A program made the translations under genes and the position numbers. Of a DNA stretch of 64,000 nt, positions 56,189-64,000 are shown piece by piece (position 1 is the first letter of the stretch; the number at the start of each line of letters is the position of its first letter). The notes beneath the pieces are model-generated. The model made no database searches. It saw nothing but the letters and a program-made list of their open reading frames with translations, and was not told where the DNA came from. Source of the DNA: Chthoniobacterales bacterium (GTDB taxonomy: Bacteria > Verrucomicrobiota > Verrucomicrobiia > Chthoniobacterales > Chthoniobacteraceae); contig JBBQZX010000019.1 in the NCBI GenBank assembly GCA_038207335.1, forward strand, positions 48,681 through 112,680, written 5' to 3'.

Positions 56189-57217
56189 CTAGTCCATCTC
56201 CACGTTCGGATTGGTCCCCGCAGGCGGGAGCGAATCGACGAGACCGATGTCGAATTTCATCCCGAGCGAGAGCCCGAGCTGCGTCAGCTTGTCCTTGATT
56301 TCGTTCAGCGATTTCTTGCCGAAGTTCCGATACTTCAGCATCTCCGCTTCGCTCTTCTGCGCGAGCTGGCCGACGCTGGTGATGTTCGCATTGTTCAGGC
56401 AGTTCGCCGCGCGGACCGACAGCTCGATCTCGTTCACCGACATGTTCAGCAGCTTCTTGAGCTTCTGGTTTTCCTGATTCTGGAGCTGCGGCGTCTCGTC
56501 GAACGCAACCGCATTTTCGTCGTAACCGTAGAACGGCTCGAAGTGCTTTTTCAAAATCGACGACGACTGCACGAGCGCCTCTTCCGGCGTCAGGCGGCCA
56601 TCCGTCCAGATTTCCAGCTCGAGCTTGTCGTAGTCCGTCCGCTGGCCGACGCGAGTCGTGCCGACGGTGTATTTCACGCGCGTCACCGGCGAGAAAATCG
56701 AGTCGATCGCGATCACGCCGATCGGCTGATCCGCGTGCTTGTTCTCGGTGCCAGTCGCAAAACCGCGGCCCACTTTGACTTCGAGCTCGGCGTTGAATTT
56801 GTGCTTCTTGTCGAGCACGCAGATGAGCTGGTCCTTGTTCAAGACCTCGCACTGCGCGGAATCCTCGATGTCGCCTGCGGTGATTGGGCCTTCCTTGTTC
56901 ACCGAAATGGTGAGGTTTCGAATCTCGTGATCGTTCGCCTTGAACTTCACCTTTTTGAGATTCAGCACGATGTCCGTCACGTCTTCGACGACGTGCGGGA
57001 GCGTCTGAAATTCGTGGTTTGCGCCGTCGATTTTGACGGCGGTGATGGCGGCGCCTTCCAGCGAGCTGAGGAGCACGCGGCGGAGCGAATTGCCCACGGT
57101 GTGCCCGTAACCGGCCTCAAAGGGCTCGGCGATGAATTTGGCATAAGTGCCTGTCGAAGTGGACTCTTCCTTGACGAGTGCCTTCGGCATTTCGAAACGG
57201 CCTAAACGAATAGCCAT
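56189..57217 (-). CDS. rpoA: RNA polymerase alpha subunit
   Basis: EPFEAGYGHTVGNSLRRVLLSS, LSVRAANCL, NFGKKSL; start set at MAIRLGRFEMP. Confidence 0.98.
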   Translation of the reverse strand: MAIRLGRFEMPKALVKEESTSTGTYAKFIAEPFEAGYGHTVGNSLRRVLLSSLEGAAITAVKIDGANHEFQTLPHVVEDVTDIVLNLKKVKFKANDHEIRNLTISVNKEGPITAGDIEDSAQCEVLNKDQLICVLDKKHKFNAELEVKVGRGFATGTENKHADQPIGVIAIDSIFSPVTRVKYTVGTTRVGQRTDYDKLELEIWTDGRLTPEEALVQSSSILKKHFEPFYGYDENAVAFDETPQLQNQENQKLKKLLNMSVNEIELSVRAANCLNNANITSVGQLAQKSEAEMLKYRNFGKKSLNEIKDKLTQLGLSLGMKFDIGLVDSLPPAGTNPNVEMD

Positions 57218-57545
57218 GATGTGTGATGAGAAAACCGCGCGCGGAAAATCCGCACCGTCCTCCCGTTTTACCTTTCTACTATTTCGCCGGGTTTCCCTCG
57301 GCGCGAGCGGTGTGCGATCATGAAAATCGCACACCCGAGGACCAACGGCGTATCTGTGTATTTGCGCTTGGGGGCGGGGAAGAGACACGATGTTCGAGCG
57401 GATGTAAACAGGGAATTCTTCGCGCAAGCCGATTAAATCACTCAAAGTAGGCAGCCGATGAATTCAGGCCGTCAGCGTCGCGCGTCACCGCTTCGCACAC
57501 AGCGTCGGCCACAGCACTGATCCAGCCGCCAGTCACTTCACCGGT

Positions 57546-57608
57546 TGCTAGCGCCCGCCGGCGCTGCCCTTCAGGCTGTCTGCGACACGCTATCTCGCTC
57601 CGCTCGGC
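57546..57608 (-). mobile_element. 63-bp multi-hairpin miniature element (copy A)
   Basis: Minus strand ga|gccgagcggagcgagatagcgtgtcgcagacagcctgaagggcagcgccggcgggcgctagca|a; same length and layout as the insert at 62675-62737; boundaries inferred by analogy. Confidence 0.6.
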
Positions 57609-57701
57609 TCGGTGGAAGCGGCGACGAAAAGCAGGGGAGTGAAGAAGCGGAGGTTCATGGAGGGGATGGGTGAAAGCTTGGTCACGAGTCATTCCGAGCG
57701 C

Positions 57702-57872
57702 TTACCTTGGCGCCAAACGGGTTCCTGCCGCGCGCGGCTGCATCCGCTGGAGCGAAAGGTGCCGCTCACGCAAGCGGTCGAGCATCTCCAGCTTTTCCAG
57801 CCACGGCAGCGCGCGCAAGCGGCGGCGTTCCGCTTCCTTGGATTGGATGATGTGCTGAAGATCGGGATTCAC
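57702..57872 (-). CDS. Small hypothetical protein (56 aa), partner of the nucleotidyltransferase-like gene
   Basis: GTG start overlaps the upstream TGA; MNPDLQHIIQSKEAERRRLRALPWLEKLEMLDRLRER...; absent from the ORF track (under 60 aa). Confidence 0.6.
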   Translation of the reverse strand: MNPDLQHIIQSKEAERRRLRALPWLEKLEMLDRLRERHLSLQRMQPRAAGTRLAPR

Positions 57873-58022
57873 GGCTGGAGGAAACGTTTCTCGAACTTCG
57901 CCCAGGCATCAAGCAGCGAGTGACGTGCGAGGATGTCGCGCAGGCGGTCCAGGTCGGCGATCCCCGCTTCGACAAAACATGACCAGCCGCGCGTGATCCT
58001 TGGCGCGTCCGGTTTGGAGCGC
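57869..58022 (-). pseudogene. C-terminal remnant of a nucleotidyltransferase-like gene, frameshifted and 5'-truncated at the IS200 repeat
   Basis: ALQTGRAKDHARLVMF [+1 frameshift near 57975] VEAGIADLDRLRDILARHSLLDAWAKFEKRFLQP*. Confidence 0.55.
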
Positions 58023-58033
58023 CGTCCTGCATC

Positions 58034-58137
58034 TGAATCCCAACGGGATTCCATCATCGAGCCCAAGGTTGCCGCGTCTTCGCGGCTACCTTGGGTCGTT
58101 GGAGAAAACGCGCATCAACTCTGAAAGAGTTGCATCA
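58034..58137 (+). repeat. About 100-bp three-hairpin REP-like repeat, copy 1
   Basis: aatccc-aac-gggatt; cccaagg...ccttggg; caactct-gaa-agagttg. Confidence 0.85.
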
Positions 58138-58590
58138 ATCCCACACATACCGTTCGTCGAATTCGATTTCGTAACGGCGGAGCAATTCGCGGAGTTCATC
58201 CTGAAACGAAATCTTGCGATGGTGTTCCGCCTGCCCGGCGATGTAAGTGCGCGCCGCCTCGACCTGCGAATGGCCGAGGGAGAAAACGCCATAGCCATTC
58301 TGCCACGCGAAGTCCGCCAGCGCGGGCGATTTCGTCTTCAGCCACACGGAGGAACCGCGTTTCAATTCCTTCACCACATCCGCCACCGTCGCCGTGCGGG
58401 AATGTGCGAAGAGCAGATGCACATGATCCTCGACGCCGCCGATGATGAGGGGCTGGCAACCGAGATTCGTGAGGATGCCGCCAAGGTAGCGGTGTAGTTC
58501 CTCGCGGAGCGGTTCGTCGCGCAGGAAAGGGCGGCGATCCTTGGTCGAGAAGACCGTGTGCAGGAGGATCTTTGCGAGCGATTGCGCCAT
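58135..58590 (-). mobile_element. tnpA: IS200/IS605-family Y1 (HUH) transposase, REP-associated-like
   Basis: HTVFSTKDR, EDHVHLL (HUH), WQNGYGVFS, YIAGQAEHH (catalytic Tyr); flanked by inverted structured repeats. Confidence 0.92.
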
Positions 58591-58617
58591 GGCGTCAGCG
58601 TGGGTGGTCCTCCAGGC

Positions 58618-58718
58618 TGATTCAACTCTTTCAGAGTTGATGCCTGTTGATGACGTGTTCCCAAGGTAGCCCGCAGCGGGCAACCTTGGGCTGGATGATT
58701 TAATCCCGTTGGGATTGA
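58618..58718 (-). repeat. REP-like repeat, copy 2 (inverted relative to copy 1)
   Basis: Reverse complement reads tcaatcccaacgggattaaatcatccagcccaaggttgcc...taccttggg...caactctgaaagagttgaatca. Confidence 0.85.
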
Positions 58719-58764
58719 GCCGTGGCTACGTTGGTAGGAATGGCGCGGTGCGAAGCGCACGCCG

Positions 58765-58873
58765 TGAACGCCAACGGCGTTCCATCATCCAGCCTAGGGT
58801 TATTTCGTTCCAACGAAACTACCCTGGGTCCATCCCACCCAACCAAACCGCCAACCCTGAAAGGGTTGAATCA
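58765..58873 (+). repeat. REP-like repeat, copy 3 (same orientation as copy 1)
   Basis: aacgcc-aac-ggcgtt; cctagggt...accctggg; caaccct-gaa-agggttg, with compensatory stem changes. Confidence 0.8.
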
Positions 58874-58899
58874 GCCCCGTTCCGAGCAGAAAAACGTCA

Positions 58900-59937
58900 T
58901 TACCAGTCGATGAGCTGGCGAAAGTTCCGGCAACTTCCGATGTAAGCGTGGTTAATGACCGTGACCGGGTTCTTGGCCCGAAAAACCCCACTGCGGCCGG
59001 CCTTGCTTCGCTTCACCCGATGTCGTTTCTCCTCTACTTCGACTTCTACGCGATAGGTGTCATTGCCGCTGTGGCGTTCGAGGGTGAATCCTTCGTCGGT
59101 TACGCTGTAGACCCAATCTAGCTGCTGCAATTTGGCGTTGTTTACGGCGACCAAGAAGTCAGCCATTGAGGAATAGCGAGCATCCTCTTGAGCAATGGCC
59201 GCCCAGATGACCTTTCTAACTGGCGTGTCCACGTCCGCACCAAGCGTAGAGAGGTCCAAAATCTCGCCATCCTGAACAAGCTTGGCCAAGTCATCGTCGT
59301 CCAAATCTCCGAGGTCGTAGTTCAAAGAACCGCCGAGAAGTTGAAACAAGACGATCCCGAGCTGATACACGTCGCTTTTCGCACTGTATCCGGCGCCTGC
59401 CCAAACCTCCGGAGGCCTGTAAATTCGCGCATGCCGGCTCGCAAAAGCCCGGCCCGCATCATTCAGTTTGCTGGCAAGACCCAAGTCGGTAACCACCCCC
59501 TTTTTTTGCTCACCATTTAATCGAATCACGAGATTGGCCGGTTTCACGTCGCGATGAACAAAGCCCTTCTTGCTGAGATGCGACAATCCAGCAGCAACGT
59601 CATTGATGAGGTGAATGCAGGTATGGGTAGATGGCCAAATGCCCGTCGCAGTCGCATTATCGATGAGTTGTTGAAATGACCCTCCAGTGATCAATTCCAT
59701 CTCAAGCAGGATTTGCTCATCCTCCAAGGTATCTGCACCAAAGATACGCGCGAGATTCTCATGCTCTAGTTCCGTTAGGAGGTGAGGCTCCCGGAGGGCG
59801 GATCCAGCGTCAGCGGCTGATATTGGATAAACCTTCAGAAAGACATCACGGCCTACAAGGCTATTTCTCGCTCGAAAGACGGTTGCATTCTTCCCCGGAA
59901 CTAAAGGCTGAGCATTTGTAAACTTCGCAGGCAGCAT
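58900..59937 (-). CDS. Cytoplasmic Hanks-type Ser/Thr protein kinase
   Basis: FLKVY, HENL, HRDVKPANL, DLGLA, YRPPE, SDVYQLG; no TM segment; visibly more AT-rich DNA. Confidence 0.9.
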   Translation of the reverse strand: MLPAKFTNAQPLVPGKNATVFRARNSLVGRDVFLKVYPISAADAGSALREPHLLTELEHENLARIFGADTLEDEQILLEMELITGGSFQQLIDNATATGIWPSTHTCIHLINDVAAGLSHLSKKGFVHRDVKPANLVIRLNGEQKKGVVTDLGLASKLNDAGRAFASRHARIYRPPEVWAGAGYSAKSDVYQLGIVLFQLLGGSLNYDLGDLDDDDLAKLVQDGEILDLSTLGADVDTPVRKVIWAAIAQEDARYSSMADFLVAVNNAKLQQLDWVYSVTDEGFTLERHSGNDTYRVEVEVEEKRHRVKRSKAGRSGVFRAKNPVTVINHAYIGSCRNFRQLIDW

Positions 59938-59949
59938 GACGATGCTGAG

Positions 59950-60408
59950 CTATTTGTTTGCGCCCTTGTATGCCGCGGCCGCGGCTCCGTTCGCTCCTTG
60001 GGTCCAATACTTGTGGGTGCCCTCGCCGTTGAACAATTCCTTCGATTTTGCCTGCCACTGCTCGCCCTTTTCGCAGCCGAGCGCAGATTTCAAGCTTTGC
60101 GGCTTAATTCCGACAACTGTAAAGCCGCATTCATGTGCGGCAAGTTGAACAACGGCCTCGGCTTTCACAGCTTCAAGCGATGATCCATATTGGCCTGCCG
60201 AACAGCAAAGGATGGCGACCGTGTCGCATTCTTGATCGCGTAAGGCAGCGAGAAGCGTTTTGAGGTTTTTCAGGAGATCAGCTAAGTCGGACGAGCCGGA
60301 CAATTCGAACTGAAGGCGCGTAATCTTTTCAACTTCGAAGGCAACGCCAACACCGGAAGTTTCCGCGATGAAGATTGCGTCCTTGGTCGAATTGATCCCG
60401 ATAACCAT
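59950..60408 (-). CDS. Hypothetical protein, possibly RNase H/RuvC-like fold (DUF3010-like)
   Basis: N-terminal VIGIN beta strand, KAEAVVQL, IKPQSLK; 12 nt upstream of the kinase. Confidence 0.6.
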   Translation of the reverse strand: MVIGINSTKDAIFIAETSGVGVAFEVEKITRLQFELSGSSDLADLLKNLKTLLAALRDQECDTVAILCCSAGQYGSSLEAVKAEAVVQLAAHECGFTVVGIKPQSLKSALGCEKGEQWQAKSKELFNGEGTHKYWTQGANGAAAAAYKGANK

Positions 60409-60475
60409 AGGCCGGAGTCTGTCTGCCTTCTGAGATGAAGCAACCTACAAAACAGGCTTACTGGTCCAGCGCGTC

Positions 60476-60621
60476 TCACTCCTTGGCGTGAACCTCGGCG
60501 CCTTTCTCCACGAACTCCTTCGACTTATCCGCCATCCCCTTCGCCAGCGCCTCTTCCTCGGAGATCGCTTGTTCGGTGGCATATTTTCGGACGTCTTCGG
60601 TGATTTTCATCGAGCAGAAGC
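60476..60621 (-). repeat. Diverged copy of the thiC 3' end (copy 4)
   Basis: Translates [47 protein letters not shown]. Confidence 0.95.
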
Positions 60622-60634
60622 GCGTGCTTCGGGG

Positions 60635-60834
60635 CTACTCAGCCGCTTTGGCTTGCTCGAACAGACTGTCCACCGTTTCCCCGGCGAAGAGTTGGTCACG
60701 AGTCTTCACGTGATCGCCGGTGCCGACTTGGAGTGTGGCGAGCAGCCGGGCGACTTTGGACGCGGGCATCTTTTCCGAAAGAATGGCGGTGGCTTCCTCG
60801 ATGGTGGCGAGTTCGTGATCGACGCGATGCTCAT
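60635..60834 (-). pseudogene. Small antitoxin-like gene with a 1-nt deletion near the start
   Basis: ATG overlaps the MazF stop (ATGA); MSIASI[frameshift]ELATIEEATAILSEKMPASKVARLL...LFAGETVDSLFEQAKAAE*; 200 nt long. Confidence 0.55.
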
Positions 60835-61175
60835 CGCTGGGACGGTGACTTGAAAATGTCGCGCGCTTTGGAGAGGACTTCGGCGAGCTTGGCGGGGAGA
60901 ACTTTCCCCGTGGAGTGGAGGATGACGCGCTGCTCGATCGTGAAGAGCCGTTGAGGGCGAATGAAGCTCGATTGACTGAGCTGCCCGCGTGCAAAATCGG
61001 TGGCGTCGAGCGGGATGGAGAAGCCGTCAGAACGTGCGCGGCTGGTAATCTGGCAGAGGATGAGATCGTCACCCGGCAAATCGACGTGCACCAAAGCAGG
61101 GCGGCGTTTTCCGACGACCTGGTCGGTCTGCGGAAACGGGATGATGACGATCTCGCCTGCTACAAGTTTGCCCAT
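60831..61175 (-). CDS. PemK/MazF-family toxin
   Basis: GEIVIIPFP...KRRPALV, LCQITS. Confidence 0.9.
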   Translation of the reverse strand: MGKLVAGEIVIIPFPQTDQVVGKRRPALVHVDLPGDDLILCQITSRARSDGFSIPLDATDFARGQLSQSSFIRPQRLFTIEQRVILHSTGKVLPAKLAEVLSKARDIFKSPSQR

Positions 61176-61354
61176 GCCGCGTCCTCTTCGGGCGTATTCC
61201 AATCGGTTGCGAGAACGGATTCGCTCAACGCCGCACCATTGAAGGCTTCGTCGCCTGCTTTTTGCCGAAGGAAGACAGCGAAATCATAAACCTCACGTTG
61301 CAAGGGCTCAGGCAAGGCGGCGATTTCCTTTTCGATCAACTCTTGCGTGTTCAT
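61160..61354 (-). CDS. DUF2281-like antitoxin
   Basis: LPEPLQREVYDFAVFL...LSESVLATDWNTPEEDAAW; overlaps the MazF start. Confidence 0.8.
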   Translation of the reverse strand: MNTQELIEKEIAALPEPLQREVYDFAVFLRQKAGDEAFNGAALSESVLATDWNTPEEDAAWANL

Positions 61355-61372
61355 ACGGCGGTTATCGCACAC

Positions 61373-61603
61373 TCACGCCTTCCCGCAAACCTCCGCGCCC
61401 TTTTCCACAAACTCCTTCGACTTCTCCTCCATCCCTTTCGCCAGAGCTTCTTCTGAGATTGCTTGTTCGGCGGCGTATTTGCGGACGTCTTCGGTGATGT
61501 CGACGACGCTGCGGCCCCGCAGCATCGCCCTTTGGGCTGACCGGCGGTGAGTCTGTCTCAGCCCGCCCGCTCGCGGGCCTCGGCTCATCGAGTAGAAGTG
61601 CGG
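61373..61603 (-). repeat. Diverged copy of the thiC 3' end (copy 3), interrupted by an 84-bp insert
   Basis: PHFYSM[insert][41 protein letters not shown]. Confidence 0.95.
61501..61584 (-). mobile_element. 84-bp multi-hairpin miniature insertion (copy B)
   Basis: Absent from native thiC (atga^aaatc); starts gccgag; hairpins gcccgc/gcgggc, gccc-aaa-gggc, gatgctgcg/cgcagcgtc. Confidence 0.75.
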
Positions 61604-61611
61604 CTCGGATC

Positions 61612-61941
61612 TCATGCGACCTGAAGCTTCGCCGTGACGTATCGAGTGCGGTCGAGAATCGAATTAGCCGCCTCCACGGGCACGAGTTTGATCAGTTCGC
61701 GAATGCTAAACTCCTGCTGACCTACGACCTCGATTCCGAGGACCCTTCCTTCCGCGTCGAAGTCGAGCATCACGAAACCATCCTCGGAACCAAATGGCTC
61801 GGTGCGGGCAACTTTTCCCTCCCGGAGGCGGATATAGGCGGCGGTCGCCTCCGTATCGATCTCGACCACCGGCGGCTCGGTGATGGTGATGACGAACCCG
61901 TGAGGGTCAGTTCCAGTATCAGGTGATGATCCAGCACTCAT
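61612..61941 (-). CDS. DUF2283-family putative antitoxin
   Basis: DTEATAAYIRL..GKVART...LDFDAEGRVLGIEV; start uncertain. Confidence 0.75.
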   Translation of the reverse strand: MSAGSSPDTGTDPHGFVITITEPPVVEIDTEATAAYIRLREGKVARTEPFGSEDGFVMLDFDAEGRVLGIEVVGQQEFSIRELIKLVPVEAANSILDRTRYVTAKLQVA

Positions 61942-62045
61942 GCAGTTTGATTTCGGCGACTACGACAAGAGTCCTATCCTCGAATACTCGGAAGAACAAC
62001 CACAGCATGCTGCCATGATTTCCCCAGCGCGGTGAAGGGGAAAGG
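61907..62045 (-). pseudogene. Remnant of a DUF4258-like toxin gene upstream of DUF2283
   Basis: ...WLFFRVFEDRTLVVVAEIKLHECWIIT*YWN*: typical C-terminal 'IIT-x-Y' with an in-frame TGA at 61919-61921; no N-terminus. Confidence 0.5.
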
Positions 62046-62070
62046 AATGCGAGTCACTATGCCGAACAAC

Positions 62071-62325
62071 TCAGCGATACACGTCCCGGCGGTGGCGAAC
62101 GCGATAGACTCGAACCACTCGAACCATGTCAGCGATCTCGTAAAGAACGCGGTAGTCGCCGACCCGAATCCGCCAGTTGCTCTTGCTTCCCGCCAGCTTC
62201 TTTGATCCCGGCGGCCGAGGATCAGTAGCGAGGACGGAAATTCCTTCGATCACGCGATCGTGAACCTCATCGGACAGTCGCCGCAGGTCCTTTTCCGCAG
62301 TGCGTTCAAGGACAATCTCAAACAC
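62071..62325 (-). CDS. RelE/ParE-family toxin
   Basis: AEKDLRRL...PRPPGSKKL..WRIRVGDYRVLY...HRRDVY. Confidence 0.93.
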   Translation of the reverse strand: MFEIVLERTAEKDLRRLSDEVHDRVIEGISVLATDPRPPGSKKLAGSKSNWRIRVGDYRVLYEIADMVRVVRVYRVRHRRDVYR

Positions 62326-62524
62326 GGGCCTTCCGACGCTCGGCGAGATAGTCTTTCATCGGACGAAACGAAAGCGGCTTGGTGCGTGCCTCTTTCAGAT
62401 AGGCAACGTCTTCGGCATCTTCCAATCGTTCGAGCAGCTCCTCATACTCCTTGATGGGGATGATCACCGAGACGGGCTTGCCCTTTCTGGTGATGATCTC
62501 GGGTTCGGCGAACGCAGCTTTCAT
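62318..62524 (-). CDS. Phd/YefM-family antitoxin
   Basis: IITRKGKPVSVIIPIKEYEELLERLED; overlaps relE. Confidence 0.88.
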   Translation of the reverse strand: MKAAFAEPEIITRKGKPVSVIIPIKEYEELLERLEDAEDVAYLKEARTKPLSFRPMKDYLAERRKARV

Positions 62525-62582
62525 GGGCGGAGGATACCTGACTTAAGCCTTCGCGTAAACCTCTGCGCCTTTCTCCACAAAT

Positions 62583-62662
62583 TGACTCGGTTGCTCCCAC
62601 AGCCTCGGCCTGCGGCCGTCTGCTTCGCAAAAGTCTTCTCGCTCGCCTCCCGGCGGCTCGAA
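62583..62662 (-). mobile_element. 80-bp multi-hairpin miniature insertion (copy C)
   Basis: aagga|ttcgagc...ccgagtca|atttgtg; hairpins cgcc-ggga-ggcg, tgc-gaa-gca, ggcc-gca-ggcc. Confidence 0.8.
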
Positions 62663-62674
62663 TCCTTCGACTTT

Positions 62675-62737
62675 TGACTCCGCTGCGCTCCGCCCTCTCG
62701 GGCAATGCTCCGCATTGTCCATCGCGCTACGCTCGGT
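62675..62737 (-). mobile_element. 63-bp multi-hairpin miniature insertion (copy D)
   Basis: gagga|accgagc...cggagtca|aaagtcg; hairpins gc-gta-gc, caatgc-gga-gcattg, gccc-gaga-gggc, gc-gca-gc. Confidence 0.8.
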
Positions 62738-62796
62738 TCCTCCATCCCTCTCGCCAGCGCGGCTTCTTCGATGTTCTCTTTCAAGGGTGACGAGCC

Positions 62797-63558
62797 TTAT
62801 GGGCGATTCCCGCGCGCTTCGGCAAGTCGCATGGCTTCCAACTCCCGCTTGAGTGGTTCCCAATAGGTGCGGTCTTTTGACATTTCCTCTCGCACCTCGG
62901 CATCCAGTGCCGCGGCGAGGGCATCGCGGTCGAGGGATTGCGCGGCGTTAAGCAGGGGGCGGCGAGGTGAGAGGATGTGCGCTTCTGTCGGGAATCGGCG
63001 GATGAGTTCCAAGAGCAGCTCGGGAGATCGACCTTCGAGGAGCCAGAATTCGATCCAGTCCGCGCGCGGCGCGTCGGCATTCTCGCGATAGTGGATGTTC
63101 ACGAGCAAGTCGATCACCGGCCAGTCCCGGCTCCGCTGCGTCTTTTTTGCCTGAACGAGATCGGGGATGCAGAGGAGATCGAAGATCATGCCGGTGTCGT
63201 CGGCGAATGACGTGCGGCGATCCCACAGCACGTCGAAGGGCGGCAGGTCGCGGAGCCGGACCATCACATCCACTCGCAGTTCCTCGACGCCAGCGGCGGA
63301 GCAACGGAAGTGAACGGCGTGGCCGCGTTCGAGGGCTGGAACATCGAAGGGCGGCACCGCGATGCGCCGGGCATCGAGTGCGCTCATGGCGGCGAGGAGC
63401 CGCTCGTAATTTGCGGAGTCGGCGAGGAGGACGAGATCGATGTCCTTGCTAACCTGCGCCGCGCCGTAAAACACGCAGGCCTGCCCGCCCATGAGCAAAG
63501 CCTGGACGCCATTCGTCCGGAGCGTAGAAAGGACTTGTCGGATCGGGGTCGGGATCAA
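62797..63558 (-). CDS. Pol-beta-superfamily nucleotidyltransferase-like protein (putative toxin/Abi-like)
   Basis: LMGGQAC..YG...SKDIDL (GG...DxD), VDVM, LVQAKKTQRSRDW; TTG start assumed. Confidence 0.75.
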   Translation of the reverse strand: MIPTPIRQVLSTLRTNGVQALLMGGQACVFYGAAQVSKDIDLVLLADSANYERLLAAMSALDARRIAVPPFDVPALERGHAVHFRCSAAGVEELRVDVMVRLRDLPPFDVLWDRRTSFADDTGMIFDLLCIPDLVQAKKTQRSRDWPVIDLLVNIHYRENADAPRADWIEFWLLEGRSPELLLELIRRFPTEAHILSPRRPLLNAAQSLDRDALAAALDAEVREEMSKDRTYWEPLKRELEAMRLAEARGNRP

Positions 63559-63673
63559 GGCTGCCTCCCATCGCCAGATAGTTGGCAAAAATCTTTTCGC
63601 TCTCGCGGAAGCGTTCGATCGGCGTGAGCGCGAGCCAATCCTTCCATTCGCCGGGAAGTTCCTCGTAGGTCAT
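63449..63673 (-). CDS. Small hypothetical protein overlapping the nucleotidyltransferase gene (putative partner/antitoxin)
   Basis: MTYEELPGEWKDWLALTPIERFRES...GGSLDPDPDPTSPF; 59 nt downstream of the thiC stop. Confidence 0.6.
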   Translation of the reverse strand: MTYEELPGEWKDWLALTPIERFRESEKIFANYLAMGGSLDPDPDPTSPFYAPDEWRPGFAHGRAGLRVLRRGAG

Positions 63674-63732
63674 GGGGTTCCATTTAGCAGCATCCGGGCA
63701 TCGGTCCAAGGTGAGTTATCAGGGCCGTCGGT

Positions 63733-64000
<268 letters not shown>

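Follow-up and report, generated by a model that had tools for sequence, protein, structure and literature searches.

Gene-less DNA insertions of 50-90 bases, widespread in Verrucomicrobia, with a predicted hairpin and four-way junction

Four short inserts, E1 to E4, lie on the minus strand of a stretch of 64,000 nucleotides from a Chthoniobacterales bacterium (the window; GenBank assembly GCA_038207335.1, contig JBBQZX010000019.1, positions 48,681 to 112,680), which forms the end of contig C19 in a genome of 5.17 Mb (G000). They belong to an apparently undescribed family of gene-less DNA insertions, 50-90 bases long and widespread in Verrucomicrobia. For one strand of the elements the predicted fold consists of a 5' hairpin and, after it, a four-way junction. 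We give about an even chance to the explanation that the elements are folded single-stranded DNA, likely moved by a HUH-type enzyme from elsewhere and likely not by the TnpA encoded next to E4. The initial annotation had described a structure-conserved, sequence-variable, non-autonomous family, a description that is supported by covariation, DNA-type loops and the existence of empty and filled alleles.

Four inserts and their family

All four inserts are confirmed as real. Excision of E1, E2 and E3 in silico produced gapless alignments with empty thiC copies in 36/36, 52/52 and 58/59 spanning matches, respectively. Contigs assembled independently from a public run that may represent the source sample cover all four inserts: E4 has 0 differences, and E1-E3 differ at 15 of 2,094 bases. 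The coordinates, lengths (63, 80, 84 and 63 bases) and minus-strand layout (GA, then NNCGAG..., then A) of the initial annotation were all re-read as written; two elements end in GAGTCA, as it had said, E4 ends in GCA and E3 in TCG. On the simplest reading a replacing A is counted with each element, giving 64, 81, 85 and 64 bases:

62674..62737, minus strand: E1, short-hairpin class (model match, hand-read fold)
62721-62737, minus strand: hairpin P1 of E1
62718-62719 with 62676-62677, minus strand: closing stem P2 of E1
62703-62717, 62693-62702 and 62678-62692, minus strand: arms H1, H2 and H3 of E1
62675 and 62674: terminal A's of E1; 62674 is the base probably put in place of the target G
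62582..62662, minus strand: E2, long-hairpin class, 80 nt plus a probable replacing A at 62582
61500..61584, minus strand: E3, extended P1, long H3, end decayed from TCA to TCG
57545..57608, minus strand: E4, short-hairpin class, foot mismatches in H1 and H3

H1 of E2 has one mismatch at its foot. Homologous elements occupy the E1 site of thiC in G031, G034 and G089 and the E2 site in G031, G081, G205, G146 and G737. Since the two sites are filled together (G031) or singly (E1 in G034 and G089; E2 in G081, G205 and G146) across other genera, empty and filled alleles exist. At E3's site G737 carries an element in which H3 and the right flank are nearly the same, and with a different P1 and H1; this suggests, from the sequences compared, that arms are exchanged or that the fold comes under selection once inserted. 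Contig C30 and many genomes contain relatives of E4, and the ends of E4 fit the family model with an E value of 3.5e-13, E4 itself being within that training set. No empty homolog of the E4 site was found in the genomes searched, where the surrounding sequence is without homolog.

The analysis used 67 copies of the short class, left from 72 that were parsed after 5 had been dropped (3 ends were corrected by hand), and 30 of the long class. Covariance model R1, representing the long class, was trained on other copies and E2, with E1, E3 and E4 outside the training set; it was built with an earlier, wrong closing pair at alignment columns 30-94, which proved to be paired in 11/30 copies and was dropped for columns 3-30. 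The short class is represented by model R2. Within the window R1 matches exactly the four elements and nothing else, the E3 match being mis-bounded. At a cut-off of E 0.001 it matches 54 of 141 related genomes, and these 54 carriers and 87 others form the relatives set used below. Genomes usually hold 1-15 copies (38 in G062 at a looser cut-off), and the genome studied here holds six: the four in the window, one on contig C25 in an hsdM-like gene (read from sequence) and one on C30. Kinship among copies inflates all counts reported here, including the covariation figures.

A 24-base motif from E2 was detected in 21 stretches among 185,579 species genomes, and the named carriers are Verrucomicrobiota in 21/21. 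The motif of E1 and E4 is present at 121 metagenome loci in 11/64 parts (about 730 stretches overall), and 73 of 118 distinct metagenome stretches close the stem within 80 bases. Because R2 matches 4/150 genomes sampled across the phylum and the exact short motif occurs in 3/401 genomes, the family is concentrated in this order. Both motifs gave 0 matches in viral contigs, and among 72,556 plasmids there was no true match to two family members used as queries, with one chance partial match per query. Exact motif counts in the own genome are close to Markov expectation and uninformative. Further copies and empty and filled alleles, named beforehand as the test of the family, were thus found, also by covariance-model scans. 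Rfam has no match at the elements, and we found no description of the family in the literature searched, with most subscription papers outside its scope.

Several variants were observed. At L107, L142, L148, L212 and L216, P1 and the closing stem are kept and the three arms are swapped for one stem with a long AT-rich loop. Repeats in AT-rich contigs (L115, L145, L146 and L173) have the short P1 hairpin alone in common; AT-rich metagenome stretches of this kind (such as L115, L145 and L173) were left out of the family set. CGTC-type repeats at L079-L082 contain the H3 motif of E1. The 1.7-Mb genome G062 holds the element within a larger repeat of roughly 200 or more bases in about 30 copies (L274-L278, L329-L347), sometimes with a second, inverted element copy in the other arm.

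Predicted fold and target site

On the strand with the G-N-A loops, read 5' to 3', hairpin P1 begins at the first base and is followed, usually after one linker base, by the 2-bp stem P2. P2 closes three abutting arms, H1-H3, without unpaired linkers, and an A follows. A loose chain of 3-4 stems, as initially annotated, gives way to a defined hairpin and four-way junction, both predicted from covariation, while the G-N-A triloops stand: in a parse of 99 copies 116/129 triloops are G-N-A. Both sides vary in 15/21 pairs of the short class and in 14/25 of the long class, values that 0/500 shuffles reach in either case, and with slid control structures the paired share drops from about 87% to 24-40%. 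For the inner pair of P2, A-T is found in 44, C-G in 42 and G-C in 2 of the 99 copies, and in H3 free covariation is seen for the two pairs flanked by tandem G.A steps (columns 70/88 and 71/87). As the first base is paired in 29/30 long-class copies, with three pair types (G-C 13, A-T 11, T-A 5), the 5' end is fixed. A strict zero-linker four-way parse fits 69/99 copies, compared with 37/99 on the reverse strand and 169/990 shuffles; E1 and E3 lie outside that parse.

G-N-A mini-hairpins are described as far stabler as DNA than as RNA in the part of PMC13037366 used here, and therefore single-stranded DNA is favoured. The modelled fold would form on single-stranded DNA, its loops and G.A steps being present on one strand only. 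Natural single-stranded DNA folds beyond the hairpin are rarely documented, a statement made for attC-like motifs in an excerpt of PMC5737381. Dozens of independent insertions in this family provide covariation support for a four-way DNA junction that contains tandem G.A steps. The short P1 presumably resembles plasmid primosome-assembly hairpins, a likeness for which our literature search gave nothing.

For 39/100 joined flanks a spanning homolog was available, and 33/39 are gapless empty sites, so the earlier statement that no target-site duplication is visible holds. The target had been given as GA^A; GA is indeed the commonest form, but the target is wider, (G/C/A)A^R-not-G, and one base is probably lost. 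Counted over 160 copies at 95 independent sites, position -2 is G in 79, C in 11 and A in 5, position -1 is A in 94 and position +2 is G in 1, with no information beyond -2..+2. The short-class search imposed GA upstream and the end definition imposed A at +1. A less biased check with the long class gave G at -2 in 20/22 sites and A at -1 in 21/22, and model matches start with GA in 48, CA in 24 and AA in 15 of 102. The commonest 3' end, T-C-A-A, presumably resembles the right end of IS608.

Comparison of empty and filled sites suggests that the target is V-A-R-H and that its purine is probably swapped for the terminal A of the element. Empty units of a repeat in G057 and G043 carry G at +1 in 63/64, and filled repeat units carry A there in 17/17, any base being allowed; 11 filled units in these genomes include 7 different 5' starts at one repeat site. 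Position +1 of empty homologs is G in 18 and A in 1 of 19 at the E2 site, G in 16, A in 2 and T in 2 at the E1 site, and G in 31 and A in 0 of 34 at a nested site. Of 61 empty units in G441, 36 have A-G, 23 G-A and 2 A-A (hand count). The alternative is a strict A-A target, with rare alleles selected or amplified afterwards. That the element takes its first base from the target was rejected: G-start hsdM/hsdR sites have A in their empty homologs, and the base covaries with an internal partner. Complementarity between element and target is not above that of shuffles (127-246 of 300 reach the observed value), in a test to which non-canonical pairing of 2-4 bases is invisible.

Host genes, candidate movers and competing explanations

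An abutting gene with Pfam annotation was available for 29 copies. The genes hit are transposase, group II intron reverse transcriptase, type I restriction-modification or Druantia genes in 28 cases and a sulfatase gene in the remaining one. Eighteen are in sense and 11 in antisense orientation, and the check for strand bias proposed initially thus shows insertion in both orientations. The check for in-frame insertion revealed that tolerance is not the rule: 13 hosts are frameshifted, 12 have an in-frame stop and 4 are read through, so that 25/29 are disrupted. Lengths that are multiples of three, as initially remarked, are found at 29/43 short-class sites, but at 3/22 sites in the class of E2, and in-frame copies usually carry a stop. 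The elements silently break transposase, reverse transcriptase and restriction genes in Verrucomicrobia assemblies. One IS91-like locus houses five copies, and many copies in copy-rich genomes are intergenic, in repeats similar to repetitive extragenic palindromes (REP) or in other repeats, nested in one another or in tandem. Copies appear to persist mainly in dispensable, often-transferred DNA, in which they would hitchhike between genera. At L064:1501-1580 the flanks stem from two different filled hsdM sites, which looks like a deletion of the sequence between two elements.

In the explanation to which we give the even chance, one strand would fold into the predicted 5' hairpin and four-way junction, and a HUH-type strand-transfer enzyme acting in trans would cut out the folded strand and re-insert it as single-stranded DNA. 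The 5' cut would fall at the foot of P1, and the terminal C-A-A, behind which the 3' cut would be made, would take the place of the target purine. The choice of a HUH-type enzyme in trans rests on what is known of HUH Y1 enzymes, which process folded single-stranded DNA strand-specifically and without duplication. They cut dinucleotides, CT or CA for example, on either side of a hairpin (PMC8266576, in part) and leave no target duplication (PMC10055086, in part).

A number of results weigh against this explanation. The one-base loss is the main reason for doubting a HUH-type mover, since the IS200/IS605 scheme, as far as it is laid out in the part of PMC10055086 used, is without target-base loss. 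Nor do empty sites uniformly carry G: at the 18/161 testable sites the empty majority is A in 9, G in 7 and another base in 2, and 7/9 empty units in G070 already have A at +1. For E2 and E4, mismatches at the feet of their arms make the strict junction parse fail. Single-sequence DNA folding is no better than for shuffles (z +0.17 to -1.09), so that the structure rests on covariation; standard folding parameters probably miss these loops and sheared pairs. In the relatives set no tested HUH family tracks the elements: the TnpA family of the window is present in 25/54 carriers and 48/87 others (hand count, p 0.39), a long Y1 family flanked by terminal inverted repeats in 28/54 and 34/87 (p 0.16), and IS91-type Y2 genes in 14/54 and 15/87 (hand count), with none in the richest genomes. 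Other than the hosts, there is no shared neighbouring gene. A long, gene-bearing version was not found among 118 metagenome stretches, a limited sample with flanks of up to 1.5 kb, and neither a circle or excision product nor an excision joint was seen among the joints listed in four contig sets. The initial annotation had proposed that a Y1 enzyme moves the family; some Y1-type enzyme may be the mover, but no such mover turned up. GIY-YIG proteins were also rejected as movers: five genomes gave 1-2 genes each, and no element lay near the two short ones. Long Y1 genes (320-350 aa) with GGGGTCAG inverted repeats, of the TIRYT type outlined in part of PMC3733652, were observed in 62/141 relatives (L305-L315).

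The TnpA initially suggested as mover is encoded beside E4:

58135..58683, minus strand: Y1 transposase (IS200/IS605-type), above the IS200/IS605 cut-off, with its own, different palindromes, 530 bases from E4

That this enzyme moves the elements as RAYTs move REPINs is the least probable of the explanations considered. It is a Y1 enzyme at a short distance from E4, and elements are present in each of the 6 genomes that have its closest relatives (73-81% identity); however, two close relatives adjoin thiC-type arrays, so that shared cargo can explain this overlap. Its gene family behaves as a target and does not track the elements: a relative in G723 has an element inside, with the window gene as the empty allele (junction 58204/58205, flanks 91% and 80% identical), and across 29 loci of TnpA relatives the sole strong element lies inside a gene. 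No member of this family was detected in the six genomes richest in elements (G057, G062, G043, G049, G087 and G074), and the flanking palindromes of the enzyme are of another type. The only further copies at these and 16 other Y1 loci are two weak ones, which lie within REP-like repeats next to a single Y1 gene (L316). The window gene, flanked by several CCCTGAAAGGG / CCCAACGGG type palindromes, forms a REPtron-like unit (window 57933-58900), and a second, 3'-truncated Y1 copy lies behind the full thiC of the same genome (G000 C38:20500-21540).

The same folded substrate could be handled by another recombinase, such as an integron-like tyrosine recombinase, an IS110-type enzyme or an undescribed protein, the base swap being its crossover. 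We consider this rather unlikely. One-base replacement and the 3' preference against G at +2 fit IS200/IS605 logic poorly, the tested HUH families do not track the elements, and attC sites are a precedent for folded single-stranded DNA as recombination substrate (PMC5737381, in part). Integrase and IS110 genes, however, are present as hosts alone and never as a shared neighbour, as judged from neighbouring genes, and the shuffle test revealed no element-specific target complementarity. Improbable, in our estimate, is an explanation in which insertion is rare and the elements spread mainly by host recombination, acting as Holliday-junction mimics in a gene conversion that takes a few flanking bases along. 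Four IS3 genes (54-85% protein identity) have an identical 72-base copy at one and the same codon, with mosaic flanks, E3 and the G737 copy share a C at +2 that occurs in 0/34 empty thiC copies, most G062 copies ride in one larger repeat, and the hsdM locus L064 resembles a deletion between two filled sites. Gene conversion fits poorly with near-identical elements in wholly unrelated flanks (L120/L213, 99% compared with about 35% in the flanks), with two different classes at one reverse transcriptase site (L116, L069), with the seven 5' starts among 11 copies at one repeat site, and with 95 independent sites that share one short consensus.

Very improbable is a role as RNA, either as RNA-copy mobility or as splicing or skipping that keeps the host gene working. 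Tetraloops GGGA, GAGA and GCGA fit GNRA, short-class lengths are often multiples of three, and the flanks in the IS3 genes differ most at third codon positions. Against it stand the antisense, frameshifted and stop-containing hosts, the dominance of G-N-A triloops, the lack of an Rfam match and the absence of target duplication or tail.

More tentatively than the HUH-type explanation itself, we propose that the elements may be a new minimal class of mobile DNA: a single strand of 50-90 bases that mimics a Holliday junction and whose arms can be exchanged between copies. An undescribed enzyme would insert it, swapping one target purine for the terminal A, and it would act as parasite or silencer of other mobile elements.

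Compared with known systems, the elements resemble REPINs, PATEs and SMRs in their working, yet fail the defining tests of each, judged by description; the sources named in this comparison were used in part. REP/REPIN sequences with RAYTs are likewise tiny, gene-less and hairpin-based, lie within genes and repeats, cause no duplication and have candidate N^A cuts (PMC8266576, PMC3733652). Their folded single-stranded substrate is strand-specific, which for the elements is predicted from covariation and from G-N-A loops on one strand. They carry a GTAG or CGTC tag at the palindrome foot, whereas the element alignments start A/G/T-C/T-CGAG; REPINs are inverted REP pairs of single hairpins, whereas the elements are predicted to form a four-way junction, are no inverted pair, probably replace one base and usually have 1-15 copies per genome. 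REP copies flank their cognate RAYT, an arrangement absent from the 29 TnpA-family and 16 other Y1 loci. PATE and IS200/IS605 elements share the lack of terminal inverted repeats, the end palindromes, the absence of duplication and forms down to 52 bp (PMC3119063, PMC10055086). Their 4-6-base motif lies wholly 5' with a free 3' flank, while the elements are informative at -2, -1, +1 and +2; guide pairing was not found for the elements, 2-4-base non-canonical pairing being beyond the test, nor was a parent with tnpA/tnpB sharing the ends, in a limited sample. SMRs of Haloquadratum are 80-110 bp long, insert into mobile elements without duplication, have no known mover and have been proposed to inactivate transposons (PMC3119063). 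SMRs and miniature inverted-repeat transposable elements have terminal inverted repeats; in the elements the two ends lack complementarity, and each closes its own stem. A derivation from IS91/ISCR is at odds with the distribution of Y2 genes among carriers given above. Integron attC sites and the DUF1874 motif keep structure over sequence and likely function as folded single-stranded DNA (PMC5737381), but attC sites occur once per cassette gene in one orientation, whereas the elements interrupt genes both ways and have neither integrase linkage nor an Rfam match.

If the one-base replacement is true, the strand-transfer chemistry would be unlike the IS200/IS605 scheme. Because the substrate is a 64-base oligonucleotide and the target has 4 bases, direct isolation and assay of the mover is within reach. 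Once it is found, the question of how enzyme-less bacterial repeats such as SMRs and CGTC repeats move becomes testable.

Surroundings of the window elements

E1, E2 and E3 lie in an array of thiC fragments and small cassettes:

62542..62780, minus strand: thiC 3'-end fragment hosting E1 and E2
61372..61612, minus strand: thiC 3'-end fragment hosting E3
60475..60627, minus strand: thiC 3'-end fragment, all three sites empty
63733..64000, minus strand: thiC 3' copy truncated at the contig end, all three sites empty
60831..62524, minus strand: toxin-antitoxin-type cassettes between the thiC fragments (context, outside the elements)
62318-62524, minus strand: Phd/RelB
62071-62325, minus strand: ParE
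61612-61941, minus strand: DUF2283
61160-61372, minus strand: DUF2281
60831-61202, minus strand: PemK

The thiC at the window end had been taken for the native gene; it is cut by the contig end and 92% identical to a full gene on contig C38, and from this comparison it is probably another copy. Fragments of the thiC 3' end, many from near one ATG, alternate with toxin-antitoxin-type or other small cassettes in many Chthoniobacterales (window 60475-64000; G000 C38, C50 and C35; L034, L040, L043, L044 and L265), and lone fragment-plus-cassette units also occur far from thiC. No integrase gene was seen in the thiC array of the window. One two-gene cassette of the array (window 58900-60408, minus strand), possibly a defence pair, encodes a Ser/Thr kinase together with a DUF3010-like protein (weak Pfam match). 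Pairs of a small gene and what we take to be a nucleotidyltransferase-like gene recur as cassettes (window 57702-58066 and 62797-63709, minus strand; also behind thiC in G031) and have no Pfam or NCBIfam match. The variable region from 57.4 to 64 kb starts directly upstream of rpoA-rplQ (window 57205-57545).

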